Positions 11,818 through 63,978 of a DNA stretch of 64,000 nt are shown in pieces. Positions within the stretch are counted from its first letter, which is position 1, and every line of letters starts with the position of its first letter. Origin of the DNA: a virus (Duplodnaviria; Caudoviricetes). The stretch spans positions 6,121 to 70,120 of the IMG/VR virus record IMGVR_UViG_2595698628_000001; one strand, written 5' to 3'. The translations under genes were made by a program, and so were the position numbers. The notes below the pieces were generated by a model. It saw only the letters and a list, made by a program, of their open reading frames with translations, was not told the DNA's origin and made no database searches.

Positions 11818-11887
11818 GGCGGTCGGTCCCGCCTGATAGCAGAAACGTTACCCTCCTAAGTCGGGTAAGTCTATAGCCAATTATGTG
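11818..11887 (-). promoter_or_regulatory. Conserved promoter-operator-hairpin repeat, copy 1
   Basis: TAGACT(11873-11868)-17bp-TAACGT(11850-11845); hairpin 11818-11833 has a one-base deletion. Confidence 0.85.
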
Positions 11888-11931
11888 CGGCAATTCCCGG
11901 TGAGGGCACTGCACTGGGATAGCCTGAGCGC

Positions 11932-12687
11932 GTGACCTTTGAGTGGCCGATCGAGCGGAGCCTGCTACCTCCGCTGCCGGAGCCGGGCGACCCACCGAGC
12001 GCGGAGTACGTCACCGCCCTCGCGGAGCGCAACGCGGCGGAGGCCTTGGCCATCGAGGTGCTGTGGGCACTGAGTGGTCGGCAGTTCGGCCTGCAGACCG
12101 TCACCGTCCGGCCCTGCCGCCAGCGGGCACCGTGGGAGTCGCGTGACTACACCGACTACGGCGTCACAAGCTACCTGCTGAGCTGGGAGGGCGACCGCTG
12201 GCTGACGTGGCCCTGCGGCTGCGGTGGCCCGTGCCGCGAGTCCGGCCCGAACATGGTGCACCTGCCCGGCCCGGTCGCCGAGGTCGAGACGGTCGAGATC
12301 AACGGTGCAGTGATCGACGCGGCGCAGTGGGCCATCGAGGGCAACGTGCTCTACCGGCGCACCGCCCCGTGGCCGACACAGGACTTGAACCGCCCGCTCG
12401 GCGACACCAACACGTGGGGTGTCACCTACAAGCGCGGACTGCCCGCCCCCGACGGCGTGGCGTACCTGACCGGCCTGCTGGCCAAGGAGTTCCTTGCCGC
12501 CATCGCGGGCAGCGGCAACTGCCGACTGCCGCGCACCGTCACCACGGCCAGCCGCCAAGGCGTGACCTACCGGGTGTATGACCCGGCGGTGATCTATGCC
12601 AACGGCAAGACGGGCCTGGCCGAGGTCGACATGTGGCTGGCGGCGACCAACCCGCATCACCTCCTCGCCGCCCCGACGGTGCGCTGA
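11932..12687 (+). CDS. Head-to-tail adaptor
   Basis: LWALSGRQFG and CRLP..VT..SRQGV motifs; position in the operon. Confidence 0.75.
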   Translation: MTFEWPIERSLLPPLPEPGDPPSAEYVTALAERNAAEALAIEVLWALSGRQFGLQTVTVRPCRQRAPWESRDYTDYGVTSYLLSWEGDRWLTWPCGCGGPCRESGPNMVHLPGPVAEVETVEINGAVIDAAQWAIEGNVLYRRTAPWPTQDLNRPLGDTNTWGVTYKRGLPAPDGVAYLTGLLAKEFLAAIAGSGNCRLPRTVTTASRQGVTYRVYDPAVIYANGKTGLAEVDMWLAATNPHHLLAAPTVR

Positions 12688-13178
12688 TGGCCGACCCTGC
12701 AGCTCACGTCGTCGCCACCGTTATGCAGGCGGTGAGCGAGGTGTTCACCGCGCCGGACGCTGACCCCGCCCCGGTGCGGTTCTTTGCCGGTGATGGTCCC
12801 GCCCTCGCCGCCTGGGACAGCCACGCCAGCCAGAGCTGTGACGTGCCGTTCCTGTGGGTGCTCGCGCAGCGCCGGTACCGGTCGCAGACGTTCCCGGCTC
12901 CGACCATCGACACCTCCGCCTGCGGGCTGACTCGGGTGATCAGCCTGCAGGTCGGCGTGGGCCGGTGCGTGGACGTCTCCGAGGTGCCGAGCTGGGAGAC
13001 CTACCTTGCCGAGGCGACACGCTCACTGGGCGATTCGTACCGCATCGAGCAAGCACTGTGCCGCGCTGCCAAAGTGCTGATCGCCGACGGCGCGGAGGTC
13101 GGCACCGACACCCTGCTGCCGTATGGTCCAGAGGGCGGCGTGGTCGCGTGGACCGGCGTCATTTACGTGAGTCTGTAG
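12687..13178 (+). CDS. Putative head-tail joining / tail terminator protein
   Basis: TGATG coupling; C-terminal PYGPEGGVVAW. Confidence 0.6.
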   Translation: MADPAAHVVATVMQAVSEVFTAPDADPAPVRFFAGDGPALAAWDSHASQSCDVPFLWVLAQRRYRSQTFPAPTIDTSACGLTRVISLQVGVGRCVDVSEVPSWETYLAEATRSLGDSYRIEQALCRAAKVLIADGAEVGTDTLLPYGPEGGVVAWTGVIYVSL

Positions 13179-13182
13179 AGGA

Positions 13183-13521
13183 GTGAACGTGGCCACCATC
13201 ACGATCGAGGGAAGCATCAGCCCGGCTGGCGGTCTCGCGCGCGGTGAGCGCCGGACGGTGCAGGACACGCCCGAGGTGCGCGAGTACGTGCGCAAGGGGT
13301 TCGCCTTCATCGTGGATGAGCGCACCGACACCGAGCGTGAGGCCGATGAGCAGGCGGAGATCGCCCGCGACGCGCTCGGCGTACCGGCCCGCAACGCCAG
13401 TCGCGACGACTGGGCGGAGTTCCTGGCGGCGCACCCCGGCGGGTTCGTCACCGAGGGCAAGAACCGCGATCAGCTCATCGCCGAGTGGGATGCCTACTCG
13501 CCGACCGTCGCTGACGAGTAA
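13183..13521 (+). CDS. Hypothetical virion-module protein
   Basis: ORF tiles the operon. Confidence 0.6.
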   Translation: MNVATITIEGSISPAGGLARGERRTVQDTPEVREYVRKGFAFIVDERTDTEREADEQAEIARDALGVPARNASRDDWAEFLAAHPGGFVTEGKNRDQLIAEWDAYSPTVADE

Positions 13522-13937
13522 TGGCGCGGGTCACCGCCCGCATCGAGATCAACGAGGCCGGGCTGGAACAGCAGTCCGGCGTGATCCTCCGGCGCAAGCA
13601 CCGCTCACTCACCCGCCAGATCGCCACCGAGGGCAGGGCGCGAGTGCCCGTGCTCACCGGCAACCTCGGTCGCTCGATCGGCGAGCTGCCGCAGCGGTAC
13701 CGCCCGTTTCACGTTGACGGCGGTGTCGAGGCGACCGCCGACTACGCAGCGCCCGTGCATGAAGGGTCCAGGCCTCACCGCATCGTGGCCCGGCGCGCCG
13801 AGGCGCTGCACTTCTGGTGGCACGGTCGTGAGATGTTCCGTAAGTCGGTTTGGCACCCCGGCACCCGGTCTCGCCCGTTCCTGCGCAACGCGGGTGAAGC
13901 CGTCATCGCTCGTGACCCGCACATCGACCGGGTGTAG
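13521..13937 (+). CDS. HK97 gp10-like tail component
   Basis: PVLTGNLGRSI...YAAPVHEG...HPGTRSRPFL motifs. Confidence 0.75.
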   Translation: MARVTARIEINEAGLEQQSGVILRRKHRSLTRQIATEGRARVPVLTGNLGRSIGELPQRYRPFHVDGGVEATADYAAPVHEGSRPHRIVARRAEALHFWWHGREMFRKSVWHPGTRSRPFLRNAGEAVIARDPHIDRV

Positions 13938-13991
13938 CCCGACGTCGGTGGTATGGTCGCCACCGTAGGCCTCGGACCCCTTGGGAGACTC

Positions 13992-14561
13992 ATGACCACG
14001 TTCAACGCTGACGGCAGCCGGGAGAAGGCGCACAGCCTGCCGGAGCCGGAGCCTGACCCCTCGATTCAGCTCGAACCGCCGGTCGACTGCGACATCGTGA
14101 CCGACGACGGCGAGACGACCGACACCGCCAGCGTGATTGCCGATCTGGCGACCGATGAGGCGGATGATCCGCGCAAGCCGGTCGACGGCGAGGTGATCGA
14201 CGCCGAACCGGTCAGCACCGCTGTCGCTCTGGTGCCCAAGCTCGACGTCTCGACCATCGAGAAGTGGGATCACGACTGGCTGCAGTTCAAGGGCGACAAG
14301 CTCGGCATCCGTGTGCCGACCCGCCAGGCGCTCGCGGCATTCAGCCTCGCCAGCGGCAAGTACGTCGACATCGGCGTCAAGAATGACCTCACCGGCCTGT
14401 TCATCGCCCGGCACCTGTCGCCGGAGTCCTATGGCCGGGTGTTCTCCCGGCTGATGGACCCCGATGAGGTGGATTACACCGTCGACACCGTGGGCGAGTT
14501 GTTCAACGCGATCGTGACCGCCTCGCTGCAGCCGGAGCCGGGCACCGACAAGCAGGGGTAA
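13992..14561 (+). CDS. Tail assembly chaperone
   Basis: GGGAGA RBS; immediately upstream of the tape measure gene. Confidence 0.65.
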   Translation: MTTFNADGSREKAHSLPEPEPDPSIQLEPPVDCDIVTDDGETTDTASVIADLATDEADDPRKPVDGEVIDAEPVSTAVALVPKLDVSTIEKWDHDWLQFKGDKLGIRVPTRQALAAFSLASGKYVDIGVKNDLTGLFIARHLSPESYGRVFSRLMDPDEVDYTVDTVGELFNAIVTASLQPEPGTDKQG

Positions 14562-30996: not shown

Positions 30997-31344
30997 ATGG
31001 GCTTTGAGCCGCCCGCCGGGTACCTCGACTGCGAGGCCGACGGCGAGGCGGCACCGCCCAACACCGGCCCGTTCCACGAGATCGAGGTGGCCGACGTCGG
31101 TGTGATTCACGCCCGGCGACCGCTGCCCAATGCCATCCCCGCCCTGAGTGCAGCGGCCAACCCCAAGGTCACCGACGTCTCGCGCCTGGGCCACCTCAAC
31201 CTGTTCGTGCAGAACCACCTGGCCGAGGGCGAGTTCGAGCACCTGCTGATGCGGATGATGGACCCCGACCAGGACTTGCCGCCGGACACGATGCTGCGGG
31301 TGTCCCGCGCGATTGCAACGGCGGGTACCGCCCGCCCTACCTAG
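30997..31344 (+). CDS. Tail-assembly-chaperone-like protein (paralog of 13992..14561)
   Basis: LFVQNHL...RMMDPD...DT...AIATA versus LFIARHL...RLMDPD...DT...AIVTA. Confidence 0.6.
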   Translation: MGFEPPAGYLDCEADGEAAPPNTGPFHEIEVADVGVIHARRPLPNAIPALSAAANPKVTDVSRLGHLNLFVQNHLAEGEFEHLLMRMMDPDQDLPPDTMLRVSRAIATAGTARPT

Positions 31345-33598: not shown

Positions 33599-33804
33599 CC
33601 CTGGTGCCTCGATCCATGCCAGCCTCGACCGGGGCGCTCGGCGTGCCAAGCGTCGATGGTCTCCGGCTTCCACCCCTTGTGAGTGCCGACCTCGACGTCA
33701 TGCGGGGGCAGCTCGGCGAGGCTGACACTGCGGCGCGACTTCACGCCGATGCGTCGGGCGACCTCGGCGTGGCTGAGGTAACGGGGCACCTTACGCGCGG
33801 GCAT
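33595..33804 (-). CDS. Small HTH DNA-binding protein (AlpA/excisionase-like)
   Basis: YLSHAEVARRIGV...LPPHD...GWKPETIDAW. Confidence 0.75.
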   Translation of the reverse strand: MPARKVPRYLSHAEVARRIGVKSRRSVSLAELPPHDVEVGTHKGWKPETIDAWHAERPGRGWHGSRHQG

Positions 33805-34190
33805 CAGCTGGCCTCCTTCTCGACTTCCCCGACAAAGGTAAGCACAACTTTGGTGCTGGGGGTAGACGCAGCGCCGATCACGTGTGCGCGATAGGCCACA
33901 TTGCGCTCCCACTCCCAGCGCATGTCGCGCTGCACCTCGACGTTCACCTCACCGCCGTGGGTCGCGGCGTACTCCAACACCGAGTCAACGGCGATGTCGA
34001 ACTGGTCGACCAGCTCATGCACTTTGTCCATGAAGCCTGCCGGGCACAGGTTGTCGCCCTTCTCGATGCGCTGGTAATCGCGCCGGTCAAACGCCAGCCG
34101 GGTGGCCATGCCGCGCTGGCTCAGCCCCATGTACGCGCGGTGAGCTGCAATCTCGCCGCCGAGGCCGGGGGTGCGGGTCTCGGGATTCAT
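33804..34190 (-). CDS. XRE-family HTH regulator
   Basis: IAAHRAYMGLSQRGMATRL...YQRIEKG. Confidence 0.8.
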   Translation of the reverse strand: MNPETRTPGLGGEIAAHRAYMGLSQRGMATRLAFDRRDYQRIEKGDNLCPAGFMDKVHELVDQFDIAVDSVLEYAATHGGEVNVEVQRDMRWEWERNVAYRAHVIGAASTPSTKVVLTFVGEVEKEAS

Positions 34191-34273: not shown

Positions 34274-34903
34274 TCACCACCCGTGCTTTTTGCGGCAGTC
34301 CGGCCCGATGCCGTATGCCCGGCTCTCGTCGTTGGTGAGCCGGGTGCTGCAGACGCCGCACCGGCCAATCTCGCGCCCGTAGCGGGCGGAGGCCTGCGCG
34401 GCTCCGGCGGCTGCGATCTTGGCGATGATGCCGAGACCCTGCTTCTGGCTGAGACGCTGCTCGTCGCCGCCGACCTCCAACTTGACGAACACCCGGCCAG
34501 CCCACTTGCCCTCGGTGGGACGGTCGACCTTGTAGAAGGCCAGCGAGTTGATCGCGCCGTCGGTGGTCTCGATGGCGTAGCGACCGGCGGGCACGATGGT
34601 CGCGTAGACGTCGTGGCCGACGACCGGCGCTGCAGCGGCGACCGAGGGCGCGTTCTCCTTGAGCCAGGCCTGCGCCTTGTCGATCTGCACGCTGGCATCG
34701 GCCTTGGTGAGCGTCGCGAACCAGGTGTCCAGGGTGTCCTCGGCGGCACCCATGTCCATGCCCTTGATCTGGGCCTTCTTGAGCATCAGGTCGCGGAGGT
34801 AACCGCGCTGGCCCTCGGTCATCGCCGGGGCGAAGCTGGCTCCGGCGGGTGCGAAGTCGACGGTGGCGGCGGGGCGGGTGTTCGCGAAGGTCGGGGTACC
34901 CAT
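34274..34903 (-). CDS. DUF6011-like Zn-finger protein
   Basis: C-terminal CGVC..RLT..ESR.YGIGPDC. Confidence 0.7.
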   Translation of the reverse strand: MGTPTFANTRPAATVDFAPAGASFAPAMTEGQRGYLRDLMLKKAQIKGMDMGAAEDTLDTWFATLTKADASVQIDKAQAWLKENAPSVAAAAPVVGHDVYATIVPAGRYAIETTDGAINSLAFYKVDRPTEGKWAGRVFVKLEVGGDEQRLSQKQGLGIIAKIAAAGAAQASARYGREIGRCGVCSTRLTNDESRAYGIGPDCRKKHGW

Positions 34904-34920
34904 GATCTTGACTCCATCTC

Positions 34921-34977
34921 CGGCGGGTCGGTCCCGCCTACACCCGAAACGCTACCCGCCTTAGTCGGGAAAGTCTA
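34921..34977 (-). promoter_or_regulatory. Conserved promoter-operator-hairpin repeat, copy 2
   Basis: TAGACT-17bp-TAGCGT; hairpin 34922-34938. Confidence 0.85.
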
Positions 34978-35033
34978 GGGGTCCGCACTATGGCCGGATA
35001 CGCTGTGGCTACAACCACCAGAGGAGACCCCGA

Positions 35034-41888: not shown

Positions 41889-41956
41889 GGGTGTCGAGCC
41901 GACCGGCAGATCGGCCCGACACCCGAAAAGCTACCCGACGTCGGCGGGAAAGTCTA
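41889..41956 (-). promoter_or_regulatory. Repeat variant: same promoter and operator, different long hairpin
   Basis: TAGACT-17bp-TAGCTT; hairpin 41889-41924. Confidence 0.75.
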
Positions 41957-42118
41957 GGACCAACGCCGGGTGATGGAAACGGTCATCTCGTTGCGACGTG
42001 CAGCGCGGTAGGCCTTGAGCACCTGCCACACCGAGTTGCCCTCATAGAGCAACTGGTCGTGGTAGCCGTCGGGGGTCTCGTCTCGACCCTCGACGCGCCA
42101 CCTCGCCGCCCGGCTCAC
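41954..42118 (-). CDS. 54-aa hypothetical protein
   Basis: GTGA overlap; MSRAARWRVEGRDETPDGYHDQLLYEG...; stop overlaps the -35 box. Confidence 0.55.
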   Translation of the reverse strand: MSRAARWRVEGRDETPDGYHDQLLYEGNSVWQVLKAYRAARRNEMTVSITRRWS

Positions 42119-50452: not shown

Positions 50453-50478
50453 CAGGGTCGGAGCCTTTCAGGGTCTCC

Positions 50479-50538
50479 CGGCGGGGCGGTCCCGCTCGGG
50501 TTAGCTAGATATACCCTACCGAGCTGCGAGCCGTCTAG
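50479..50538 (-). promoter_or_regulatory. Degenerate repeat copy (hairpin kept, operator lost)
   Basis: TAGACG...GGGTATATC...GCGGGACCGCCCCGCCGG upstream of 50452. Confidence 0.5.
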
Positions 50539-50903
50539 CCCGAGTTACCCGACCCTTGACGGTATTGTCCGGTACGGTGCCACCGCTGCCCTCTTTGTGC
50601 TTGGTAGAGGGTCACGATAGCGCGGCTCAGATCGGGCGGCAGCAAACTGAGCAACCGGCCCATCTCCGAGGCGGGCGACCACTGGCCCAGCTGCGCATCG
50701 GTCGGGGTCTCGCCGGTCTCGCGGCGGCTCATCTCCTCGATCAGCGCGCAGAACGGGCCGAAGTGGTTGGCCGACTGCGGGCGGGCGCAGGCGTACCCGA
50801 GGGCGAAGGCGAGTGCAGCGGTCGGGGTGAGGATCAGCGGAGTCGCCGGGCCGGAGGCGGCACCGAAGTCGGGTACCACGGGCACGGGGCGGTCGTCGGT
50901 CAT
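50535..50903 (-). CDS. Hypothetical protein
   Basis: ATG 50903 preceded by TACAGT and an operator-like site at 50916-50936. Confidence 0.6.
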   Translation of the reverse strand: MTDDRPVPVVPDFGAASGPATPLILTPTAALAFALGYACARPQSANHFGPFCALIEEMSRRETGETPTDAQLGQWSPASEMGRLLSLLPPDLSRAIVTLYQAQRGQRWHRTGQYRQGSGNSG

Positions 50904-51245
50904 ACCGTGAGACTGTACCCCGACGTCGGCGGGTAAGCGCCTCATGCGCGCGCGCGCGAATCCTAGTCGACGCACCCCAAATTCGTCAACCCCTAACTTT
51001 ATCCTTGACCTCGGCTTGACTAGGGCAGTAGGGTCGCGACGGACACGACCCACTGACCCGTGACGTCTGCGCCCTCTCGGTCGATGGACCGATTGAGGAT
51101 GATAACGAGAACACCCGCCAGGACTGAGGCGAGATCATGGAGCGTCAGGCGCGTTTCTCGCGCGCCTGCTCAGAGGATGACGCCGGGGCGGGTGAGGTGG
51201 GACGGGTATAGCGCGCTAACCCGTAGAGCGCTATGGTCGATTCTC
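50904..51245. other. Divergent non-coding region (candidate origin or control region)
   Basis: Largest gene-free gap; (GC)n run, lower-GC tract, palindrome. Confidence 0.45.
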
Positions 51246-52698: not shown

Positions 52699-52907
52699 TG
52701 ATTGGAGGCAGTGCAGTGACCATTGATGCCTCCGACCTGCGCCGTCTCGGAATCACCAGGGCGCGTGTCGATCGCGCGACTGCTTGCCACTACCGCGACA
52801 GCGGCAGGATCATCGTGGTAGCCGACAAAGGTGACTTTGAGGCGGCAGCGATGGCCCTTGCCGAGCTGGCCTGCAAGGTCGCCCCGACCGAGGAGACAAC
52901 GCCGTGA
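52695..52907 (+). CDS. Hypothetical protein
   Basis: Coupled start and stop. Confidence 0.55.
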   Translation: MMIGGSAVTIDASDLRRLGITRARVDRATACHYRDSGRIIVVADKGDFEAAAMALAELACKVAPTEETTP

Positions 52908-53545
52908 CGGTCAGTGACGACGACATCGCCAACCTGCTCAACGAGGAGTTGTTCGCCCGCCGGGTCAAGGCGCTGTTCCTGTCCAACGCCGGGGCGACCA
53001 TCGCCAAGATCGCCGAGGAGTGCGGCGTGTCGACCGGCACGGTGCGCAAGGACTTGGAGATTGCCAAGCGCCAGTACCTCGCCGAGACACCCGACCAGCG
53101 CCGGGCGGTGCAGATGTCGATCATCACCGACATGCGCAAGGCCAACTACCCGGCCATGATGCGCGGCGACGTCGATGCGGCCAACGTGATCCTGCGCGGC
53201 ATGAAGCAGGAGGCCTCGCTGTTCGGCCTGTTCCCCAAGGTGCTGGAAGTGCCCGGCATCGACTCCGTGAGTGCAGCCAACGAGATGGCGGCACTGATCG
53301 AGCGCATTGCCCAGATTGACCCGCACGGACTCAAGGAGATCACCCGTGGACAAACACCGCTCGACGTCGACACCGTGGAAGATCGTGAGCAACCTGCCAC
53401 GGGCGCAACACCTTACGATGCTGCGCAACCTGCTGGGTTCGTGGGGGAGACCGACGAACCAGCCGGTGCCGAGCACCCCGGTGAGCTACCTCGACAAACT
53501 GGCGACGCCGGAGGCGACGACGGCTGGTCCAACATCGGCAGTTGA
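52904..53545 (+). CDS. HTH DNA-binding protein (possibly terminase small subunit-like)
   Basis: GATIAKIAEECGVSTGTVRKDL; GAGGAGA RBS. Confidence 0.75.
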   Translation: MTVSDDDIANLLNEELFARRVKALFLSNAGATIAKIAEECGVSTGTVRKDLEIAKRQYLAETPDQRRAVQMSIITDMRKANYPAMMRGDVDAANVILRGMKQEASLFGLFPKVLEVPGIDSVSAANEMAALIERIAQIDPHGLKEITRGQTPLDVDTVEDREQPATGATPYDAAQPAGFVGETDEPAGAEHPGELPRQTGDAGGDDGWSNIGS

Positions 53546-54687: not shown

Positions 54688-55200
54688 GTGAGCGAGTGGC
54701 GACCAGATGACATGCTGGTACCTGCTTTGCTGGCCGGGTCACCGACCACGATGGATGACCTCGACGGCTGCGACCGCGTGTGGGCTGTGGTGGTGATGAC
54801 CGACGATGAGGAGATGACCGCCGAGGCCATCGCTGAGCGCCTGTGCTGCAGCTTGCGGCTGGTGCGCACCATCCTCGCCGACCCGGCGACGGTGCTGATG
54901 CGGCTGTACCGCGCCGAGGCGGAGACGTTCGAGCGCGAGCTGGACATGACCTCCGGCGAGGTCGCCCGGCTCAACGCCGCCCTGACCGCCACGACCGCCG
55001 AGCGCGACCGGATCACGCTGCAGCGCGACCGCCTGCTGGACACGCACCTGTCCGAGCGCAACGGCGAGATGTTCAGCTGCGGCTGCCCGATGACCCGCTA
55101 CAACACCTACGTCTCGCCCTCGACCGGCAAGCGCGGCTGCCGGACACACCGCAATGAGGCTGTCCGGCGGCATCGCGCGCGGGCGCGTCAATCCGCGTAG
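54688..55200 (+). CDS. HTH + coiled-coil + Cys motif protein
   Basis: MTAEAIAERLCCSLRLVRTI; CGC...NTY...RGCRTH. Confidence 0.7.
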   Translation: MSEWRPDDMLVPALLAGSPTTMDDLDGCDRVWAVVVMTDDEEMTAEAIAERLCCSLRLVRTILADPATVLMRLYRAEAETFERELDMTSGEVARLNAALTATTAERDRITLQRDRLLDTHLSERNGEMFSCGCPMTRYNTYVSPSTGKRGCRTHRNEAVRRHRARARQSA

Positions 55201-56980: not shown

Positions 56981-57456
56981 CACAGCACCTCCGACCCGTT
57001 GTGATCCTCGACCTTGGCGATGTTGACCCACCCGCCCTTGGGTGCTTTCGGCCCGCCGGTACGGGTGGCCACCACGACGTGGTTGTGGCCCAGCCGGTAC
57101 ACGCCGCCCTTCCACGCAGGCTCGACCAACAGGAACTCGGGCCGGGCACCTCGGGCCAGGGCGACCTTGCCGACCCGCTCGGTGCGCGTTGCCCCGTCGA
57201 GCACCCGCACGTCGACTGCAGCCTTGTACGCGGCGGCAATCGAGGGGTGCGTGTCGATCACGGCGCGCAGGTCGAGCGCGTCGCCGAACTGCGTGCGCAG
57301 CCGGTCGGCGATCTCGCGCAGGTGCTCGGGCACCTCCGGCTCCGGCGAGTGCTCGCCCTCGAACTTCATGCACCGCTCGCCGGAGGTCAGCAGGTACATG
57401 CAGGTGTCGTCGCCGGGCATCGGCTCGAACTCGTGGTGGTCGTCGGTGTCGGTCAT
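56980..57456 (-). CDS. Hypothetical protein
   Basis: AGGGAG RBS. Confidence 0.65.
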   Translation of the reverse strand: MTDTDDHHEFEPMPGDDTCMYLLTSGERCMKFEGEHSPEPEVPEHLREIADRLRTQFGDALDLRAVIDTHPSIAAAYKAAVDVRVLDGATRTERVGKVALARGARPEFLLVEPAWKGGVYRLGHNHVVVATRTGGPKAPKGGWVNIAKVEDHNGSEVL

Positions 57457-57725
57457 GTGATCGGTGCTCCCTTCGAGGTGATCTGCAACCCCTGGCGGCG
57501 CAGATTGGCGATGTCGTTCTTGCGACTGCGGTACTCGCTCGGCGTGCCTGCGATCGTGCCGATGAGCCGCCCGTCGAGATACACCTTGTAGTGGCCGGTG
57601 CGGCTGCGGCATGGCCGCAACTCGCCTCCGGCGGTCTCGATCGCGGACAACAGCGCGCGGGTGTCGCGGTCGCTGGTTCGGTTGCTCGCCCGTTTGGAGC
57701 CAGGCTGCGGGCCGGATTGCGTCAT
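57453..57725 (-). CDS. HicA-like (dsRBD-fold) toxin-like protein
   Basis: LL.AIE.AG...TGHYKVY...TIAGTPS..RSRKN..A.LRR.G. Confidence 0.6.
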   Translation of the reverse strand: MTQSGPQPGSKRASNRTSDRDTRALLSAIETAGGELRPCRSRTGHYKVYLDGRLIGTIAGTPSEYRSRKNDIANLRRQGLQITSKGAPIT

Positions 57726-57727
57726 GA

Positions 57728-58039
57728 TCACCACCACAACTTGCCGTCGTGCAGCACCACGCTGAACTGGTCGCCCTCGGCGGCGGAGTCGATGGCGGCG
57801 CAAACGTCGCGCCGGGCGACCTCGGCCAGCTTGGCGACCATCGTGGTGCTCGACAGGTTGATCGAGGCATGGTTGCCGGTCGAGACGTTGACCGCCTCGA
57901 TCACGCGGTACGTCTTGGCGGCGACGTAGGTGCGGGCGGTGAGCACCTTGTAGGCTTGACCGCGCTCGACCGCGCCGAGCATCACGCCCCGGTAGAGGTC
58001 GCCCGGCTGCAGCTCGGCAGCCTCGATCAGGGTGCTCAC
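57728..58039 (-). CDS. Hypothetical protein
   Basis: GTGA overlap. Confidence 0.6.
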   Translation of the reverse strand: MSTLIEAAELQPGDLYRGVMLGAVERGQAYKVLTARTYVAAKTYRVIEAVNVSTGNHASINLSSTTMVAKLAEVARRDVCAAIDSAAEGDQFSVVLHDGKLWW

Positions 58040-58224
58040 TGCGCCCGCCGGGCGATCTCGTCGCAGACCACGCGGGCCTGGGCGACGCGCTCGGGGTCGG
58101 TGTATCCGAAGTGCCGGTTGCGTTCGGCGACCAGCTGGTCATCGGTTGCCGAGGCGACGAACGTGGCGTACCCGCCGTCGCCGACCCGGCTGGCCGGGGT
58201 CGGGGTGACTGAGTTGATCTTCAC
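58036..58224 (-). CDS. Hypothetical protein
   Basis: GGAGG RBS; directly downstream of the repeat. Confidence 0.65.
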   Translation of the reverse strand: MKINSVTPTPASRVGDGGYATFVASATDDQLVAERNRHFGYTDPERVAQARVVCDEIARRAQ

Positions 58225-58238
58225 GGTGATCCTCCGTT

Positions 58239-58297
58239 CCGGCGGGTCGGTCCCGCCTCACGCTCGAAACGTTACCCGACTAAGGCGGGTAAGTCTA
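58239..58297 (-). promoter_or_regulatory. Conserved promoter-operator-hairpin repeat, copy 3
   Basis: TAGACT-17bp-TAACGT; hairpin 58241-58257. Confidence 0.88.
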
Positions 58298-58312
58298 TGG
58301 CCTACGAACTGG

Positions 58313-58549
58313 CTACTTCTGCGTCACCGTGCGACGTCGCGGCTCACGCTGCAGGTGCTCATCGAGCTGGCCGACCAGCGACGGGCGCGGTGTCCTCGCT
58401 GGCACAGTGTGCGCCCTGACCTTGCCGTCTTTGCGGACGCTGCGCACCGTGCCGCAGACCCGGCACAAGGTCTCGGTGACGTAGCGCTCGCGGTCGGACC
58501 AGCGACGCCGGTTGACGACCGGCAGCTGGCCCGACCCGAGGCATCTCAT
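58313..58549 (-). CDS. Basic Zn-finger hypothetical protein
   Basis: C.GSG...CRVCG...GKVRAH. Confidence 0.6.
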   Translation of the reverse strand: MRCLGSGQLPVVNRRRWSDRERYVTETLCRVCGTVRSVRKDGKVRAHTVPARTPRPSLVGQLDEHLQREPRRRTVTQK

Positions 58550-58764
58550 TTGATCGGTTCGCCGTTGGCGTCGCAGCCGTAGATCGGCCCGGCTCCGGCG
58601 GTCGACTGCCAGGCGGTCGGGATATACCCGCCCTTGTCGATCCACTCGTGCAGCGCCACGACCAGCTCGGCCAGCCGGACGGCTTGCGGGTCGTGGTCCT
58701 CGCTGAACTGCACGATGCCGCGTGCGAGGCCCAGTGTCTCTGCCAGATTGGCGTCGGGGTCCAT
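58546..58764 (-). CDS. Hypothetical protein
   Basis: MDPDANL...LHEWIDKGGYIPTAW. Confidence 0.65.
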   Translation of the reverse strand: MDPDANLAETLGLARGIVQFSEDHDPQAVRLAELVVALHEWIDKGGYIPTAWQSTAGAGPIYGCDANGEPIK

Positions 58765-58765
58765 C

Positions 58766-59002
58766 TCAGCTCACCGAGACCCACTGCATCACGACCGCCA
58801 GCGCAGCGTCGTAGCTGTCGGCGCTGGTGATCTCGTTGACGAACTCGGCGGCCTGCTCACGGCTGGCTCCGCCGGACAGCAGCGCGCGCTGCACTCGCCC
58901 GATGATCAGGAACACGTTGCCGTCGTTGCCGGTCAGCTGCACGTGGACGTCAGGGAACTTGGGACGCTCGGCGGTCTCTGCCTCGGTGGTGTCGTTTGCC
59001 AT
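58766..59002 (-). CDS. Hypothetical protein
   Basis: LTGNDGNVFLIIGRV...SYDAAL. Confidence 0.7.
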   Translation of the reverse strand: MANDTTEAETAERPKFPDVHVQLTGNDGNVFLIIGRVQRALLSGGASREQAAEFVNEITSADSYDAALAVVMQWVSVS

Positions 59003-59047
59003 CAGATTTGCTCTCTCCGTGATCGGGGTGGTTGTGAGTGATAGGTG

Positions 59048-59075
59048 GGGTGGCCCGACCGTAGCCGGGCCACCC
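59048..59075. terminator. Intergenic hairpin
   Basis: GGGTGGCCCG-8nt-CGGGCCACCC. Confidence 0.55.
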
Positions 59076-59083
59076 TGGTGGTG

Positions 59084-59671
59084 CTAGTGCCGCTCGAACG
59101 GGCTGCCGTAGCGACCGGCGTGCCCGCCGGAGCCGCCCGACCCTGCACCGCCGACGTACCCGCCCGGCGCGTAGCTGGTCAAGATGGCCACGATGCCCTC
59201 ATCGGCGCTCGGGTCGGAGGTGCCGAGCACCCGCCCGAACGCGCCCATCTCCTCGGCCACAGGCGGCTCCACGCCCTCGGGCAGCAGGCTGTCGCCGTCG
59301 ACCAGCGACCGCAGCGTTGCCCAGTTGGCCTCGCCGATGAACTGCAGCAGGCCGGGCCAGTTGAACCGCCGACCCTCCTGCCCGGTCACGGCCCAGCGCA
59401 CGCTGCGACCGTCGCGCCAGCCGACAGCGGCATAGTTGTAGTTGCGGCCCGACTGGTAGCGCTCGAACGCGACGACCGGGTGCTCACCCTGCGCCACGCG
59501 CGGCATCTTGGGCTTGCGTGCCTCCTCCTCGGCGATGGCCTGCTCAGCAGCCTGCCGGGTCAGTTCCTCGGCGATCGAGCGGGCACGTGCGGCCTCGGCG
59601 CGCAGCTGCGCGGCGGTGACCGGCGCGGCGGCGACCTCGGTGGCCTTCTCGCCCTGGTTGTCGTTGCTCAT
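59084..59671 (-). CDS. Hypothetical protein
   Basis: AGGAGG RBS. Confidence 0.7.
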   Translation of the reverse strand: MSNDNQGEKATEVAAAPVTAAQLRAEAARARSIAEELTRQAAEQAIAEEEARKPKMPRVAQGEHPVVAFERYQSGRNYNYAAVGWRDGRSVRWAVTGQEGRRFNWPGLLQFIGEANWATLRSLVDGDSLLPEGVEPPVAEEMGAFGRVLGTSDPSADEGIVAILTSYAPGGYVGGAGSGGSGGHAGRYGSPFERH

Positions 59672-59700
59672 GGTTGATGTCCTCCTGGTGTTGGTTGGTG

Positions 59701-59739
59701 GTTGTGGTGCGCGTTGGCCGGACGCGCCCCCGGTCGAGC
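59701..59739 (-). repeat. Second intergenic repeat family, copy A
   Basis: Nearly identical to 61142-61181. Confidence 0.8.
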
Positions 59740-59742
59740 TGA

Positions 59743-60816
59743 TCAGGCGGGCTGCAGCACCTCCGAGGTTGCCGGGGTCAGCTGAGCCACCGTCTTGTCG
59801 AGGCTGCCCTTGATGCCGGTGAAGGCGTCACTCTTGAGCTTGTGCAGGTCGAACGACGTCAGCGTGCGCACCGCGCGCTTGGCAGCCTGGTCGCCCTTGC
59901 CCAGCACCGGCATGAAGTGGTCGGCGTACTCGGTGACGGCGTTGTAGGCGGCGTACGCGGTGCCCTCGAACGGTTTGATGCTCGGCGACTGCCGCATCAC
60001 CTCCATCACCTGCGTGACCCGCTCGACGCGCGCCCCGCGCATCTTGTCGGACTCCGCCTTGTTGACGCCGAACACGTCGTTGAACACCGCGCGCACCCAC
60101 TGCTCGTCGCGCTCCGCCTTCACCAGCGCCTCCATCTCGGCGGCGAACACGTCGGTGTACTTGAACGTCAGGCCCAGCAGCTTGCGTACCTCGGCCAGCT
60201 TGGCGGTCGGCGCGCCCGTGTGCCGCAGGGCGACCGAGGAGACCGCTGCAGCCTCAGCGATGCGCTGCGTGTTGGCGCACACGATGCGAACCGGCGAGAT
60301 GACCGCCCGCAGGCTGCCCTGCCCGTCGTGGTGGTTGATGACGGCCAGGTACACCTCGGTGGTGTCCTTGAACCCGTCTGCACCCGTGAACTCCACGTGC
60401 GTCGGCATCAGCATCGTGACGAACGTGCGCCGACCGCCGTCCAGTGAGCCGATGGTCTCGATGTGCGCGCCGGACTGGTCGGTGATGTCGTAGAGCAGAT
60501 CGGTGGTCTCCTCGTTCTGGTACGGCTGCCAGCGGTCGCCGACGACGGCCAGCGCCTCCGGCATGAGGGTGTGCGGGTTGGTCCGCAGCACGGTCCACTG
60601 GCCCGGTGCAGCCACCTCGATCTCGCCATCGAGACCGTCGGGCACCGTCTGGCGGTGCTCGATCTTGCGGACGTTCCAGCCGTTCATGTGCGCGGCTTCC
60701 AGCGCCTCCGCCGGGGTCATCGTGTGGCCGATCTTCTGGCCGAGACCGTGCCAGGCGTCATCGCGGCTGTCGGCGAAGTTGTAGCGCCCGGCGGTGTTGT
60801 CAATCTCGTGTCCCAT
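59743..60816 (-). CDS. DUF932/DUF945-family protein
   Basis: AWHGLG...GSLDGGRRTF...NHHDG...VRIVCANT...RHT; AAGGAGA RBS. Confidence 0.85.
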   Translation of the reverse strand: MGHEIDNTAGRYNFADSRDDAWHGLGQKIGHTMTPAEALEAAHMNGWNVRKIEHRQTVPDGLDGEIEVAAPGQWTVLRTNPHTLMPEALAVVGDRWQPYQNEETTDLLYDITDQSGAHIETIGSLDGGRRTFVTMLMPTHVEFTGADGFKDTTEVYLAVINHHDGQGSLRAVISPVRIVCANTQRIAEAAAVSSVALRHTGAPTAKLAEVRKLLGLTFKYTDVFAAEMEALVKAERDEQWVRAVFNDVFGVNKAESDKMRGARVERVTQVMEVMRQSPSIKPFEGTAYAAYNAVTEYADHFMPVLGKGDQAAKRAVRTLTSFDLHKLKSDAFTGIKGSLDKTVAQLTPATSEVLQPA

Positions 60817-60856
60817 GATGTTCTCCTTGCAGGTAGTGGGTGGTTGGGGTGGTCGA

Positions 60857-61117
60857 TTACTTGACGTTGGGGTCTCGCGGAGCCGGGTCATCGCCGTTGG
60901 GCGTGCCGTCGCCGTCGCCGTCCTTGGCACCCCAGCCGCCACCTCCGCCGTGGCTGTTGATGGCGATGTCCTTGCACGCGGCTTTGTGTCCGTTGCGGTA
61001 GGCCATGTTGGAGCTGCACAGCACGTCGTCCTGCGGTCCCGCGACGGCGGGTGCGGCGAGGGCGAGGCCTGCAGCGATGAGCGCCGACCCGAGGGCGGCG
61101 GTGAGGGTGATCTTCAT
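60857..61117 (-). CDS. Small secreted protein with DxDxDG motif
   Basis: Signal peptide ending AVA|GP; DGDGDGTPNGDDPAPRDP. Confidence 0.65.
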   Translation of the reverse strand: MKITLTAALGSALIAAGLALAAPAVAGPQDDVLCSSNMAYRNGHKAACKDIAINSHGGGGGWGAKDGDGDGTPNGDDPAPRDPNVK

Positions 61118-61141
61118 GGTGGTGCCTTTCGTGAGTGGTGG

Positions 61142-61181
61142 GTTGTGGTTGCGCGTTGGCCGGTCGCGCCCCCGGTCGAGC
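61142..61181 (-). repeat. Second intergenic repeat family, copy B
   Basis: Nearly identical to 59701-59739. Confidence 0.8.
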
Positions 61182-61182
61182 G

Positions 61183-61443
61183 TCAGGGCAGGTCGACGTC
61201 CAGGTTGGACACGGCCCACAGGGTGATCTGCGCGATGTCCGCGCCGTCGGTGCTGTCGACGTCGATGACGGCGACCTTGCTGCTCTCGTCGCCGCCGACG
61301 AACCCGGCTGCCCAGGTGGGGTGGACGTCGGTCCAGGTGACGTTGCCGTTGGCCTTGGCTGCCGAGACCAGCGAGTCCATCAGGTGCTCGACCTCGGAGT
61401 TGAGGCTGTACCAGCTGGTGACGGTCACGGTGCGAGTGGTCAT
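61183..61443 (-). CDS. Hypothetical protein
   Basis: GAAGGG RBS; downstream of the repeat. Confidence 0.7.
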   Translation of the reverse strand: MTTRTVTVTSWYSLNSEVEHLMDSLVSAAKANGNVTWTDVHPTWAAGFVGGDESSKVAVIDVDSTDGADIAQITLWAVSNLDVDLP

Positions 61444-61454
61444 TTTGAACCCTT

Positions 61455-61520
61455 CCGGCGGGTCGGTCCCGCCTCCTGATAGCAGAAACGTTACCCGACT
61501 AAGGCGGGTAAGTCTATAGC
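61455..61520 (-). promoter_or_regulatory. Conserved promoter-operator-hairpin repeat, copy 4
   Basis: TAGACT-17bp-TAACGT; hairpin 61457-61473. Confidence 0.88.
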
Positions 61521-61537
61521 CTCCGAGCTTGAAAGAT

Positions 61538-61567
61538 GGCCCGCCCCGGCCTGAACCGGGGCGGGCC
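61538..61567 (-). terminator. Intrinsic terminator
   Basis: GGCCCGCCCCGG-6nt-CCGGGGCGGGCC, then ATCTTTC on the - strand. Confidence 0.75.
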
Positions 61568-61575
61568 GGAGCGGT

Positions 61576-62394
61576 CTAGGCCTCCGCCTCGGCGATCTTG
61601 CCGATGAGCCAGCGGGCGGCGTTGACCTTGTTGAGCCGGTCCAGATCGTGGAACCCGGCACCTTCCAGGTTGGCGGTCTCCATGTCGCTGCAGTGCGCCA
61701 ACAGGGTGTCGCGCTCGACCTGCGTGGTGGCGATCGTGACCGACCCGTCGGTGCGCTTGCGCGCTGCAGCCATCTTGGCGATGATCTGCGCCTCGACCTC
61801 GGTGCGCTCGACGGTGACCAGCCACGCGCTCACCCGGCTGGTGATGCGCAGCTTGACGGTCGCCTCGGCTGCCTCCGCCCGGCGGGCGATCTCGGCGTCC
61901 ACGGCGGCGTCGACCGTCATCAGCGGCTCCGGCTCGATCTCCTCGGCGGTGACCTCGCCGTCGGCCATCGTGATGACCGCCTCCGGCTGCAGGTCGGCGG
62001 CGAACTCCGCCTCGATGGCGTCCAGCGCGGCGTCGGCGGTCTCGTAGACCGTGACGTTGTTGGCGACGTGCTTGGACGCGGTGACCTTGCCCTTGTTCTT
62101 GGCGGCGACCAGCTCGGCGAACGCGCTGGCCGGAATCTCGCCCCAGCCGTCGATGTCGGGCATCCACTCGCCGAGCTTGCCCTTGATCGCGGTCGGCTTC
62201 ACCGGCACGATCGTGGCGGGCACGCCCGTGCTGTAGGTCTGCTCCCGGCTAGTCGATGCCTTGGCGGCAGAGGCCATCGTCTTGTGCCACTGCACCTGGC
62301 TGCCGACCGTAATGGCGACGTAGGGCATGGTGCCCGAGGTGCGGGTGTAGGTGTGGCCTTCGTGGACTGCGGTGAACTCGATCTTGGCGGCCAT
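61576..62394 (-). CDS. Hypothetical protein
   Basis: AAGGGAG RBS; has its own promoter and terminator. Confidence 0.75.
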   Translation of the reverse strand: MAAKIEFTAVHEGHTYTRTSGTMPYVAITVGSQVQWHKTMASAAKASTSREQTYSTGVPATIVPVKPTAIKGKLGEWMPDIDGWGEIPASAFAELVAAKNKGKVTASKHVANNVTVYETADAALDAIEAEFAADLQPEAVITMADGEVTAEEIEPEPLMTVDAAVDAEIARRAEAAEATVKLRITSRVSAWLVTVERTEVEAQIIAKMAAARKRTDGSVTIATTQVERDTLLAHCSDMETANLEGAGFHDLDRLNKVNAARWLIGKIAEAEA

Positions 62395-62415
62395 CTCTGG
62401 CTCCCTTCGTGATGT

Positions 62416-62494
62416 CCGGCGGGTCGGTCCCGCCTTGCTTGACACGAGAAACGTTACCCTCCTAAGTCGGGTAAGTCTATAGCCATTTATGTGG
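62416..62494 (-). promoter_or_regulatory. Conserved promoter-operator-hairpin repeat, copy 5
   Basis: TAGACT-17bp-TAACGT; hairpin 62418-62434. Confidence 0.88.
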
Positions 62495-62506
62495 CTTTAT
62501 TGCAGG

Positions 62507-62674
62507 TCACAGCGCCTGCATCGCTGCCGACACCGGTATCGCGAGCACGCTGGTGAACATGATCACCGCCCCGGCCCATTCGCGGGCCGACCCCTCGGCG
62601 GCGTTGCCGATCAGCTTGATGCCGAGCAGCACCCCGGTGATGCCGAGCAGGGTCACGATCAAGGTGGTTGTCAT
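62507..62674 (-). CDS. 55-aa 2-TM membrane protein
   Basis: MTTTLIVTLLGITGVLLGIKLIG...WAGAVIMFTSVLAIPVSAAMQAL; ATGA overlap. Confidence 0.6.
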   Translation of the reverse strand: MTTTLIVTLLGITGVLLGIKLIGNAAEGSAREWAGAVIMFTSVLAIPVSAAMQAL

Positions 62675-63078
62675 TCCGTCTCCCGGCGGATCACGTCGGC
62701 GATCGGGTCACCGAACATCTCGGATTGTTCCTCGTAGGTGAGCTGACCGATGGTCTCGGCCACGACGTCGGCGGTGTCGTAGGTGACCGCCGGGTAGAAC
62801 GTGCAGGTTGCCTCGCATGGCTCATCCGGCGCGTGGTCGTGCAGCCCGAGCGCCATGCCTTTCCACGGGCTGTCCATCGCCTCGATCTGACGGCGGTGAA
62901 ATGCCGCGTACTCGTCAACGTCGTCGTGCAGCATCCGCACTGGCTCCGGCGATCGTTGCGGAGCGAGCAGCGAGGCTGCCCAAGCGATGTGATTCTGGGC
63001 CTCGGCGTCGGCAGCCCGGCGGCGTGCCCGGCGACCGAACAGGCCGCAGGCCGGGCAGCGCAATCGACGGCAGCTCAC
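62671..63078 (-). CDS. Hypothetical protein
   Basis: GTGA overlap. Confidence 0.55.
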   Translation of the reverse strand: MSCRRLRCPACGLFGRRARRRAADAEAQNHIAWAASLLAPQRSPEPVRMLHDDVDEYAAFHRRQIEAMDSPWKGMALGLHDHAPDEPCEATCTFYPAVTYDTADVVAETIGQLTYEEQSEMFGDPIADVIRRETE

Positions 63079-63422
63079 GGCACAATCACCTCGATCTCTC
63101 GGCGGAACAGGCACAACTTGCGCCCTCGGGCGAACACGATGCAGTACAGCGGCTCACGGTCGCCACGCATAATCGCGGTGATCTGGCCCCGGCGGGTGCC
63201 GGAGACCATCACGACGTCGCCGACGACCGGTGTCACGTTGGGGTCGGCAGCGCGGGCCGATGCCGCCTGCCCGGCGTCGATCTGGGCCTGGCGCTTGGTC
63301 GGCCAGCTGCAGGCCTTCACGTGTGGCCCGTCGGCGGTCCAGAACCCGCCCGCGTGGGCGTGATGCTGCACCGTGAACGGGCCGGAGGTGTAGACGCCGT
63401 TGGCGTCGCGGTGCCACTTCAC
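63075..63422 (-). CDS. Hypothetical protein (C-terminal SH3/KOW-like region)
   Basis: VGDVVMV...RGQITAI. Confidence 0.6.
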   Translation of the reverse strand: MKWHRDANGVYTSGPFTVQHHAHAGGFWTADGPHVKACSWPTKRQAQIDAGQAASARAADPNVTPVVGDVVMVSGTRRGQITAIMRGDREPLYCIVFARGRKLCLFRREIEVIVP

Positions 63423-63688
63423 GCAGTCACCGCCCTCGGGAAGGTCGCGAGCGTGGCCTGGTCGCCGCCGACGCGATAGATCATGCCCAGCTTGGGGTCC
63501 ACGATGACCGTCTTGGGGTCATACGGGCCAGCGTCGCCGAGGTCGGGCAGCTCGTGGCTCGGGATGCCGAGCTGCAGCCGCAATGCCTTGACCATGATCC
63601 AGGCGTGGACTGACTCGGGGTTCTCTGCGAGCACCGCGAGGTGGGTCTGCAGGTGGGTGCGCAGTTCGTCGTTGGTCATCGTGGTCAT
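63419..63688 (-). CDS. Hypothetical protein
   Basis: AGGAGA RBS. Confidence 0.6.
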   Translation of the reverse strand: MTTMTNDELRTHLQTHLAVLAENPESVHAWIMVKALRLQLGIPSHELPDLGDAGPYDPKTVIVDPKLGMIYRVGGDQATLATFPRAVTA

Positions 63689-63891
63689 GCTGGGTCTCCT
63701 GTCAACAGGCGCGAGGCCTCGGGAAAGTAGAACGCGGCGGAGCCGCCGCAGCCGCACAGACGCCGGGCGGCGGTGTGCTTGTCGGGGCAGCAGGCGTTGG
63801 CGTCGAACTCCGCCCACCACTGTGCCCAGGTCAGGCTGTCCTCGAACACCTCGGCCAGGTTGGGCTGGGCCAGATCGGTCTCGGTGATCAT
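63685..63891 (-). CDS. Small Cys-rich hypothetical protein
   Basis: Directly downstream of the repeat. Confidence 0.6.
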   Translation of the reverse strand: MITETDLAQPNLAEVFEDSLTWAQWWAEFDANACCPDKHTAARRLCGCGGSAAFYFPEASRLLTGDPA

Positions 63892-63904
63892 CGGGGTATC
63901 CGTT

Positions 63905-63978
63905 CCGGCGGGTCGGTCCCGCCTCACAACCGAAACGCTACCCTCCTAAGTCGGGTAAGTCTATAGCCATTTATGTGG
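63905..63978 (-). promoter_or_regulatory. Conserved promoter-operator-hairpin repeat, copy 6
   Basis: TAGACT-17bp-TAGCGT; hairpin 63907-63923. Confidence 0.88.

Follow-up and report, generated by a model that had tools for sequence, protein, structure and literature searches.

A repeated cassette of putative promoter, hairpin and ribosome site ahead of genes in a relative of Mycobacterium phage Acadian

What does an intergenic sequence of about 72 bases do when it recurs in near-identical form, always on the minus strand, at six places in a phage genome? The question is raised by a 64,000-nucleotide stretch of a virus record (IMGVR_UViG_2595698628_000001; bases 6121-70120 of 70,120 bp, G+C 68%), called the window below and numbered from its own first base. 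Sequence comparison shows that the phage is related to Mycobacterium phage Acadian (Bclasvirinae): the right end of the window is ~80% identical to Acadian and its relatives, 92% of the genome aligns with Acadian at 73-88% identity (blastn), and the megablast matches are all phages of Mycobacterium or Gordonia (88/88). The gene order is also that of Acadian, with a plus-strand structural arm followed by a small minus-strand unit divergent from the lysin genes, the minus-strand replication genes, a plus-strand block and finally a minus-strand run of small genes at the right end. The answer proposed here, with a probability of about 0.6, is that every copy works as an expression module in its own right. 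A host-type promoter, a short RNA hairpin and a ribosome-binding site would together start both transcription and translation of the gene behind it.

The cassette, its predicted promoter and its distribution

The six cassettes (E1 to E6, Table 1) lie where the initial annotation had placed them and share one layout: a -35 hexamer TAGACT, exactly 17 bp, a -10 hexamer TAACGT or TAGCGT, TTC, 6-12 nt, the hairpin AGGCGGGACCGACCCGCC, a purine-rich ribosome site and an ATG or GTG start codon. The exact 17-bp spacing, which had been claimed for these copies and for two variants at 376 and 41.9 kb, was found in all of them. With up to two mismatches, the pattern TAGACT-N17-TARCGTTTC has seven matches in the window, all on the minus strand and the seventh being the 41.9-kb variant, against an expectation of 0.00 from 100 shuffles; the hairpin pattern has 17 matches against 2.19 expected (palindromic sites being counted on both strands). 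No further full copy was found in the 6,120 bases of the record that lie outside the window. The copies differ in detail: E1 heads a gene running opposite to the plus-strand structural genes, and its hairpin (GGCGGGACCGACCGCC) has lost one C from the 3' arm and still folds with five pairs; E2 is divergent from the plus-strand gene starting at 35034 (the counterpart of the Acadian lysin A gene); E5 has the longest linker between -10 and hairpin (16 nt); and E6 is the last element ahead of the record end.

The SigA-type geometry proposed for the two hexamers is supported by the relatives, whose homologous copies carry a canonical TTGACA or TTGACT, 17 bp and then TAAGTT, TAACTT or TAATAT at the same position. 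TTGACA or TTGACT is the -35 sequence in PDRPxv, Pipefish, Cooper and one further relative (G002), GAGACA that in Rosebush, and the TAGACT of the window keeps four of six consensus bases. TAGACT had also been considered as a -10 and was ruled out, since the relatives have TTGACA at that position. TANNNT is the form that the -10 takes in mycobacteria; it fits every full copy in six genomes, and the GGG ahead of it is invariant. The best-conserved columns are T-GAC of the -35, GGGTA...T, GT in the linker, the six stem pairs and positions A1 and G4 of the loop, although invariance in the seed columns of the covariance model (R1, built from 30 copies selected by regular expression) is partly a matter of construction, the seed having been chosen by motif. 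Some observations weigh against a promoter. The window hexamers are weak by the E. coli consensus (TAGACT 4/6, TAACGT 3/6); a generic sigma-70 scan calls none of the six window promoters; and in another relative (G001) four of five copies read GTGTGT at the -35 position while the rest of the cassette is kept, so that the -35 contact is not universal. Taken across genomes, we infer that the promoter reading is well founded by comparison.

The position of the cassette relative to genes is strict. All 43 full copies in six genomes precede the start of an open reading frame on the same strand, as had been stated for the window, with 13-36 nt between hairpin and start codon (exactly 13 nt in 13 copies) and 10-16 nt between -10 and hairpin. 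If the RNA starts about 7 nt past the -10, as homology to the relatives suggests, 3-9 unpaired nucleotides would remain at its 5' end. The ribosome site is purine-rich and begins directly after the stem, as in GGAAGGG, GGAACGGAGG and GGAGATGGAG.

Outside the window the cassette is widespread in one group of phages. A blast search with a single-cassette query of 82 nt matched 345 of 50,697 phage records (344 of Mycobacterium, 1 of Mycolicibacterium). Six complete genomes were compared (the window, Acadian, PDRPxv and relatives G001, G002 and G003); with R1 at ≥43 bits they hold 6, 5, 12, 5, 10 and 5 full copies respectively, 43 in total. Those of Acadian, at 17.7, 40.9, 64.4, 67.7 and 69.8 kb, occupy positions equivalent to those of the window, and weak copies lie at 6.2 and 47.9 kb. 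Rosebush, Pipefish and Cooper, which bring the B-type genomes to nine, have 4 (26-33 bits), 15 and 7 matches at E≤1e-6. The same architecture and stem occur in the 150-kb Gordonia phages Pupper and Skog (6-7 matches each, clustered among small genes), in the 62-kb Gordonia phage Fresco (5 matches, one of them at the position equivalent to E2) and on a few metagenomic viral contigs. Only the E2 position has a cassette in every one of the nine B-type genomes and also in Fresco. Conservation ahead of genes in relatives, the absence of which the initial annotation had listed among the grounds for refuting its reading, was found by the covariance search of complete genomes, and the cassette is real, far beyond chance and conserved across the whole phage subfamily and further. 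Two side observations concern the Gordonia phages: at 129500-143000 of Pupper nearly every small gene of an 11-kb stretch follows a gap of 55-75 nt, and both Pupper (a 150-kb myovirus) and Fresco encode homologues of an Xre-type helix-turn-helix protein and a RuvC-like protein of the window.

Searches elsewhere were mostly negative. The strict composite pattern gave five single matches, none in Mycobacterium, in a set of bacterial genomes with one genome per species, so that nothing at that stringency points to the cassette in hosts or prophages. The hairpin pattern taken alone gave many single chance matches in IMG/VR and was too unspecific, and of 62 new IMG/VR loci from the composite pattern 37 were set aside as an unrelated class of terminator-like sites in other phages; these share ...GGTTAGGGGGTAYRTTTAC...GGCGGGA-N4-CCCGCC followed by a T run and are probably terminators that match the pattern by coincidence. 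Rfam 15 had no match at gathering score over the window and none at E≤1 over 58000-64000. Among sequencing runs no RNA run containing the sequence was listed; six runs contained 5-10% of the sampled words, all of them as contigs, in which transcript starts would not be visible. The literature yielded no transcript data, no description of the composite cassette (reviews, book chapters and supplements could contain one) and nothing on cluster B gene regulation beyond predicted SigA-like promoters in B1 phages, reviews and book chapters lying outside that search. Those promoters come from a preprint (10.1101/2023.05.30.542743) in which at least 10 top-scoring SigA-like promoters were predicted with DNA Master in the terminal reverse-strand block; its text uses neither the word hairpin nor the word stem and describes no shared cassette. 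The Vic9 paper (PMC11772480) has no text on promoters or transcripts, and PMC11242194 deals with an F1 phage and is not relevant to the cassette.

The hairpin as RNA element or DNA site

The most conserved part of the cassette is the hairpin, a 6-bp G+C stem (GGCGGG, loop A-N-N-G-N, CCCGCC). The initial annotation had seen in it an RNA-level element following the promoter, and selection on base pairing is borne out by covariation. Across 72 distinct copies from ten genomes or contigs, every cell is paired as a standard pair (427/427); five double, compensatory changes, three from G-C to A-U and two from G-C to C-G, affect three of the six pairs, and one-sided stem changes are absent from the 72 copies. 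None of 500 shuffles reached the observed score, and slid controls paired in 35-54% of cells. The six-genome set alone gives 99.6% pairing and three double changes, and more compensated stem variants occur in the weaker Pipefish copies and in Fresco.

Several further features favor intrastrand pairing in a transcript over a symmetric double-stranded site, as the covariation itself does. Conservation in the loop differs between the two sides of the dyad (A at position 1 in 70/70, T at position 5 in only 7/72), and so does that in the flanks (A on the 5' side in 62/72, G on the 3' side in 57/72). Two copies have a loop of 3 nt. Ahead of the helicase gene, five genomes keep a hairpin at equal distance from the promoter with unrelated sequences and lengths (free energies, ΔG, -11 to -36). 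Three units that consist of hairpin and ribosome site without a recognizable promoter lie between same-direction genes in G001 and G002. In all six window leaders the hairpin also forms part of the minimum-energy fold. It is therefore probably a selected, RNA-level element, as far as comparison of sequences can tell.

Against this conclusion stand a number of points. Folding gives modest z-scores (-3.0 to +0.04); the events behind the covariation are few (5 cells), and the alignment was fitted to the model; G-U pairs are absent, some of which a purely structural RNA would be expected to tolerate; and a near-invariant stem sequence is also expected of a DNA site. A last group of points concerns stability of the message. 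Stem-loops at the 5' end are known to stabilize mRNA in the E. coli ompA leader, the B. subtilis aprE leader and the polypurine stabilizer of phage SP82. The cassette resembles these in having a stem-loop a few nucleotides from the 5' end together with a strong ribosome site, and differs from them in a stem sequence far more constant than stability alone requires. In M. smegmatis, moreover, comparable 5' hairpins of esxB are reported not to have stabilized a reporter, and in the transcriptome 5' structure is reported to be uncorrelated with half-life (PMC11728522), which weakens the idea of a 5' stabilizer. Mycobacterial RNase E is described as cutting single-stranded RNA 5' of cytidines (PMC10641625).

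The preferred reading, an expression module, would then work as follows. Host polymerase carrying a housekeeping sigma factor (SigA/sigma-70 type) would start an RNA that opens with a very short leader and then folds into the G+C hairpin; the ribosome-binding site abutting the stem would recruit translation of the gene that follows. The modules would head small units, namely those of the leftward right arm, the helix-turn-helix gene unit and the one reverse gene in the structural arm, and early expression by host polymerase is presumed by analogy. The hairpin most likely serves as a recognition or organizing element for the adjoining ribosome site, through protein binding or control of translation or processing, plain protection of the 5' end being the weaker option. 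That the stem and the loop bases A1 and G4 stay constant in phages of two host genera is suggestive of a specific partner. A tentative extension, which we regard as possible and no more than that, takes GGCGGG-(A-N-N-G-N)-CCCGCC as the common handle of a phage-wide regulon switched by one factor, which would recognize the handle in every cassette transcript or in the DNA, and the module as a mobile plug-in for actinobacteriophages as well; candidates for the factor would be the core Xre-type protein, itself encoded behind a cassette, or a host factor common to Mycobacterium and Gordonia.

The same stem sequence occurs once more in the window, in another setting. A palindrome GGCGGG-N5-CCCGCC with loop TACCG lies at 31320-31336 on the plus strand, in the last codons of a gene of the Phage_TAC_16 tail-assembly-chaperone family (30997-31344) and 25 nt ahead of the next gene (31362). 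All six genomes have it at the equivalent place, with loops that vary. Constraint on the coding sequence, an RNA element between cistrons and a recoding signal are possible explanations.

One alternative reads the 17-bp palindrome GGCGGG-N5-CCCGCC as a duplex operator, at about +5 to +25, through which a dimeric helix-turn-helix protein would block the polymerase and so shut all units together. Half-sites of 6 bp around a variable 5-bp center resemble classical Cro and repressor operators. From genus to genus the stem hardly changes while -35, -10 and linker drift, and the lack of G-U pairs would suit a DNA site. The phages also encode a possible ligand, the Xre-type protein, whose family is found in 488 phage records and whose gene is second after a cassette in five phages, but this co-occurrence is weak evidence because these phages have the protein among their core genes. 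Changes in single copies are compensatory across the arms and never one-sided, which is not what a homodimer site predicts. Nor does such a site agree with the asymmetry of loop and flanks, with the two copies whose center has 3 bp, or with the helicase-site copies, which keep a hairpin and not its sequence. We consider this operator unlikely.

Equally doubtful is a repressor operator separate from the hairpin, in the spacer of the promoter, where the initial annotation had pointed to an inverted repeat (CCCG-N7-CGGG). A position between -35 and -10 is a classical one for a repressor. All six copies have the motif, as do the variants at 376, 41.9 kb and 50.9 kb that have no consensus hairpin, and it is kept in Acadian-, Peguna- and Cooper-type genomes. 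As a dyad, however, it is not maintained: 78.8% of cells pair, compensatory changes are zero, all 500 shuffles do as well (500/500), and mismatched combinations such as CCTG with CGGG or CCCG with CAGG occur. Pipefish has GTGG as the 3' half, Rosebush lacks the motif, and Rosebush, Pupper and Fresco have a different spacer. The invariant part, GGGTA, adjoins the -10 and may be intrinsic to the promoter, like an extended -10, and concerted evolution can explain the likeness among copies. The operator claim was accordingly not upheld, the sequence giving no positive evidence for a dyad operator; the spacer motif may be a lineage-specific protein site.

It is quite improbable that the hairpin is instead a nascent-RNA site for a polymerase-modifying factor, comparable to the antitermination sites boxB/nut of lambda or put of HK022. 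A conserved hairpin with a pentaloop directly after each promoter and the multi-gene units of the right arm would suit such a role. Genomes carry 5-12 copies, many of which head single short genes; copies without a promoter are found right at ribosome sites; nothing resembling a boxA partner motif was noticed; and there is no known antiterminator homologue among the proteins scanned (20-odd of ~95 genes).

Still less probable is a composite of promoter and terminator of the kind known as PeSL (promoter-early stem-loop) in T4-type phages, where the stem-loop is described as a terminator or attenuator of upstream transcription and tested for termination (PMC2839356, PMC4122927), so that the stem-loop, or the spacer dyad with the T-rich TTTC, would end transcription from upstream. 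A generic scan does flag TTACCCGCCTTAGTCGGGTAA + CGTTTCTGCT (61511-61491) as terminator-like, and true terminators stand just upstream of a cassette in some relatives. The GGCGGG hairpin, however, is located downstream of the -10, with purines (GGAA, GGAG or GGAC) and no U tract behind it; not one of the six hairpins is called by the intrinsic terminator scan; the dyad in the spacer is not maintained; and terminator-like sites in the region number 5 against 4.7 in shuffles.

Concerted evolution, possible gene exchange and known systems

Most copies of the cassette resemble another copy in the same genome more than their counterparts elsewhere. Each genome has its own variants of -35, -10, linker and loop, common to nearly all its copies, and the nearest neighbor is a copy from the same genome for 36 of 43 cassettes. 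Identity is 68-85% between positional orthologues of the window and Acadian and averages 82-85% among the paralogues of the window. The six window copies are patchworks of one another with exact shared tracts of 14-40 bp; E1 shares its promoter half with E5 and E6 and its linker with E4, and E3 has the promoter half in common with E4 and the hairpin half in common with E6. As a pattern in the sequences, it is shown that copies within a genome evolve in concert, by recombination or gene conversion.

Identical tracts of 21-40 bp could serve as joints for moving or replacing genes, and shuffling of genes at the repeats had been proposed. The closest pair agrees with this. In the comparison with Acadian similarity stops exactly at the upstream edge of E4 (61519), the gene after E3 is replaced, and the gene of the E5 unit (a homologue of gp97) is relocated relative to the gp93-96 block. 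On a crude gene list (70-84 genes per genome), alignment endpoints fall at four of five cassette junctions against 11 of 68 other junctions (Fisher p=0.005), and the reciprocal, non-independent comparison gives p=0.012. Six more distant comparisons, by contrast, are without enrichment of breakpoints (p=0.42-1), and cassette-mediated exchange is plausible, with backing from one genome pair. As a side observation in the right arm, the minus-strand gene at 59743-60942 encodes a 399-amino-acid (aa) DUF932 protein and its DNA is ~72% identical to that of 62-kb Gordonia phages (Sisko, Yago84), which points to gene exchange between phages of two host genera.

That the element plays no part in expression and is simply a selfish repeat, or a target of recombination or homing, is hardly credible, for although concerted evolution, patchwork copies, breakpoints at the edges in one genome pair and HNH endonuclease genes annotated in the right arm of relatives could be so explained, orientation and distance to the start codon are strict in 43/43 copies, the conserved columns are the promoter hexamers, TANNNT and the ribosome site, and no copy lies within a gene.

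Read as an expression module, the cassette can be compared with several known repeats. The analogy with the PeSLs of T4-type phages, drawn by the initial annotation, stands in part. Both are repeated host-sigma promoters with a G/C stem-loop, placed before small genes of no assigned function in variable regions, and in both the copies are similar enough to recombine; with PeSLs gene insertion, deletion or replacement is associated, as it may be with the cassette. The analogy fails at the hairpin, which in the cassette lies between -10 and ribosome site without a U tract; the cassette also belongs to actinobacteriophage siphoviruses, and its association with breakpoints was seen in one genome pair only.

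The SAS and ESAS repeats of Cluster K are also linked to starts, precede unrelated genes across subclusters and are described as having no known function (PMC3203893). The SAS is given there as a 13-bp motif (GGGATAGGAGCCC) centered on the ribosome site, which the ribosome sites of the cassette do not match; and for the inverted repeats of the ESAS its authors find no support for RNA pairing, whereas in the cassette pairing is supported and coupled to a promoter. In Cluster O, 17-bp palindromes (TGTTCGG-N3-CCGAACA) are similarly repeated, often near gene starts, and the genomes have 8-9 predicted SigA-like promoters, some leaderless, beside palindromes; these palindromes, however, exceed 30 copies, many within genes, and are neither tied to promoters nor oriented, while the position of the cassette is fixed (PMC4351075). 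Lastly, the E1 unit, in opposing the structural operon, resembles a moron as defined for phages (an insertion of promoter, gene and terminator; PMC3029335). The other five cassettes differ from a moron in heading multi-gene stretches, and E1 is not a recent insertion because it lies at the same place in Acadian and other relatives.

Variants, downstream genes and significance

Coordinates of the cassettes and of the features around them are collected in Table 1. Four partial members had been proposed, and all four are real. The 41.9-kb variant has the same promoter and another hairpin, with a longer, 13-bp stem that starts near the predicted 5' end. The 50.9-kb variant lacks a TAGACT-like -35 and has its ATG 8 nt past the -10. 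Because in 369-407 (ahead of the RuvC-like gene) and 50906-50944 (ahead of a DUF7423 gene) the ATG follows the -10 by 6-8 nt, transcripts from these two are probably leaderless.

Table 1. Cassettes, variants and associated features. Positions refer to the window unless a genome is named; bits are covariance model scores (57-81 for the six copies, 39.8 for the 41.9-kb variant, 19.6 and 14.8 for the others).
Feature	Position	Strand	Details
Cassette E1	11806-11876	-	-35 11868-11873; -10 11845-11850; hairpin 11818-11833; 57 bits
Cassette E2	34910-34980	-	-35 34972-34977; -10 34949-34954; hairpin 34922-34938; 73.6 bits
Cassette E3	58229-58300	-	-35 58292-58297; -10 58269-58274; hairpin 58241-58257; GTG 58224; 81.3 bits
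Cassette E4	61445-61519	-	-35 61511-61516; -10 61488-61493; hairpin 61457-61473; ATG 61443; 78.5 bits
Cassette E5	62406-62482	-	-35 62474-62479; -10 62451-62456; hairpin 62418-62434; ATG 62394; 72.4 bits
Cassette E6	63895-63966	-	-35 63958-63963; -10 63935-63940; hairpin 63907-63923; ATG 63891; 78.5 bits
Variant promoter without hairpin	369-407	-	TCGACT-17-TAAGCT; ATG 369, 6 nt past -10; 19.6 bits
Variant cassette upstream of DNA helicase gene (40154-41848)	41893-41959	-	TAGACT-17-TAGCTT; 39.8 bits
Degenerate cassette	50468-50540	-	TAGACG ... TATATC; hairpin AGCGGGACCGCCCCGCC at 50480-50496; ATG 50452; 14.8 bits
Spacer motif TACCCGCCGACGTCGGGG, then -10 TACAGT	50906-50944	-	18-bp spacer; no hairpin; ATG 50903
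Sole gene of E1 unit	11531-11797	-	88 aa; DUF7185 / phrog_922
Terminator-like hairpin	11489-11516		12-bp G+C-rich stem + TTTG, just past the stop of the E1 gene
First gene of E2 unit	34274-34903	-	209 aa; C-terminal DUF6011; phrog_636
Second gene of E2 unit	33804-34190	-	128 aa; Xre-type helix-turn-helix; phrog_955; HTH_31 24 bits (cut-off 27)
First gene of E3 unit	58036-58224	-	62 aa; phrog_31094; unrelated to the Acadian gene there
First gene of E4 unit	61183-61443	-	86 aa; DUF7280
Gene of E5 unit	61576-62394	-	272 aa; phrog_5873; homologue of Acadian gp97 (41% aa identity)
First gene of E6 unit	63685-63891	-	68 aa; phrog_4825
Promoter-less hairpin units	G001:C1:64609-64625 and 65351-65367; G002:C1:69172-69188	-	no recognizable promoter
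GTGTGT cassettes of G001	L131:4901-4971, 8251-8321, 10765-10835; L130:2086-2156

The genes behind the cassettes are mostly of unknown function (DUF7185, DUF6011, DUF7280 and several unannotated PHROGs). The terminator-like hairpin past the E1 gene lies between that gene and a convergent plus-strand structural gene and is possibly a two-way terminator, in which case E1 would be a unit of promoter, gene and terminator; a consensus terminator scan, which needs five T, did not call it. In the E2 unit, the Xre-type protein is a candidate regulator, found together with the cassette in cluster B, Pupper and Fresco. The 488 phage records of its family divide into 472 of Mycobacterium/Mycolicibacterium, 14 of Gordonia and 2 of Tsukamurella, and the phages in which its gene is second after a cassette are the window phage, Acadian, PDRPxv, Pupper and Fresco. 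The plus-strand gene at 52904-53545 is a second candidate for a DNA-binding protein. It belongs to phrog_645, labeled 'Rnase E' in PHROGs here and in relatives, but a link to RNA processing was ruled out, as Pfam finds only N-terminal helix-turn-helix domains (HTH_23, DeoR-like) and the RNase label seems unfounded. The protein of 54688-55200, a third candidate, has a weak match to sigma-70 region 4, below threshold, and a HicA-like reading of the open reading frame at ~57453-57734 was dropped, there being only tblastn similarity to a Pupper gene and no confirmation by Pfam.

Among sequenced mycobacteriophages cluster B is one of the largest groups, with more than 350 genomes according to one review (PMC9262239), and the cassette would map the transcription units of its members. 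It would also be a ready-made expression part for mycobacterial genetics and phage engineering, and it offers a tractable leader hairpin that is conserved in sequence as well as in structure between phages of two host genera. For the evolution of phage genomes it would represent a case of concerted evolution of viral regulatory repeats, with possibly cassette-mediated shuffling of genes outside the T4 group. If the tentative regulon and plug-in idea were true, B-type siphoviruses (70 kb) and 62-kb and 150-kb Gordonia phages would be able to swap foreign genes and at once express them, and the cassette would be the actinophage counterpart of the T4 PeSLs, with a leader-RNA element in place of the terminator.

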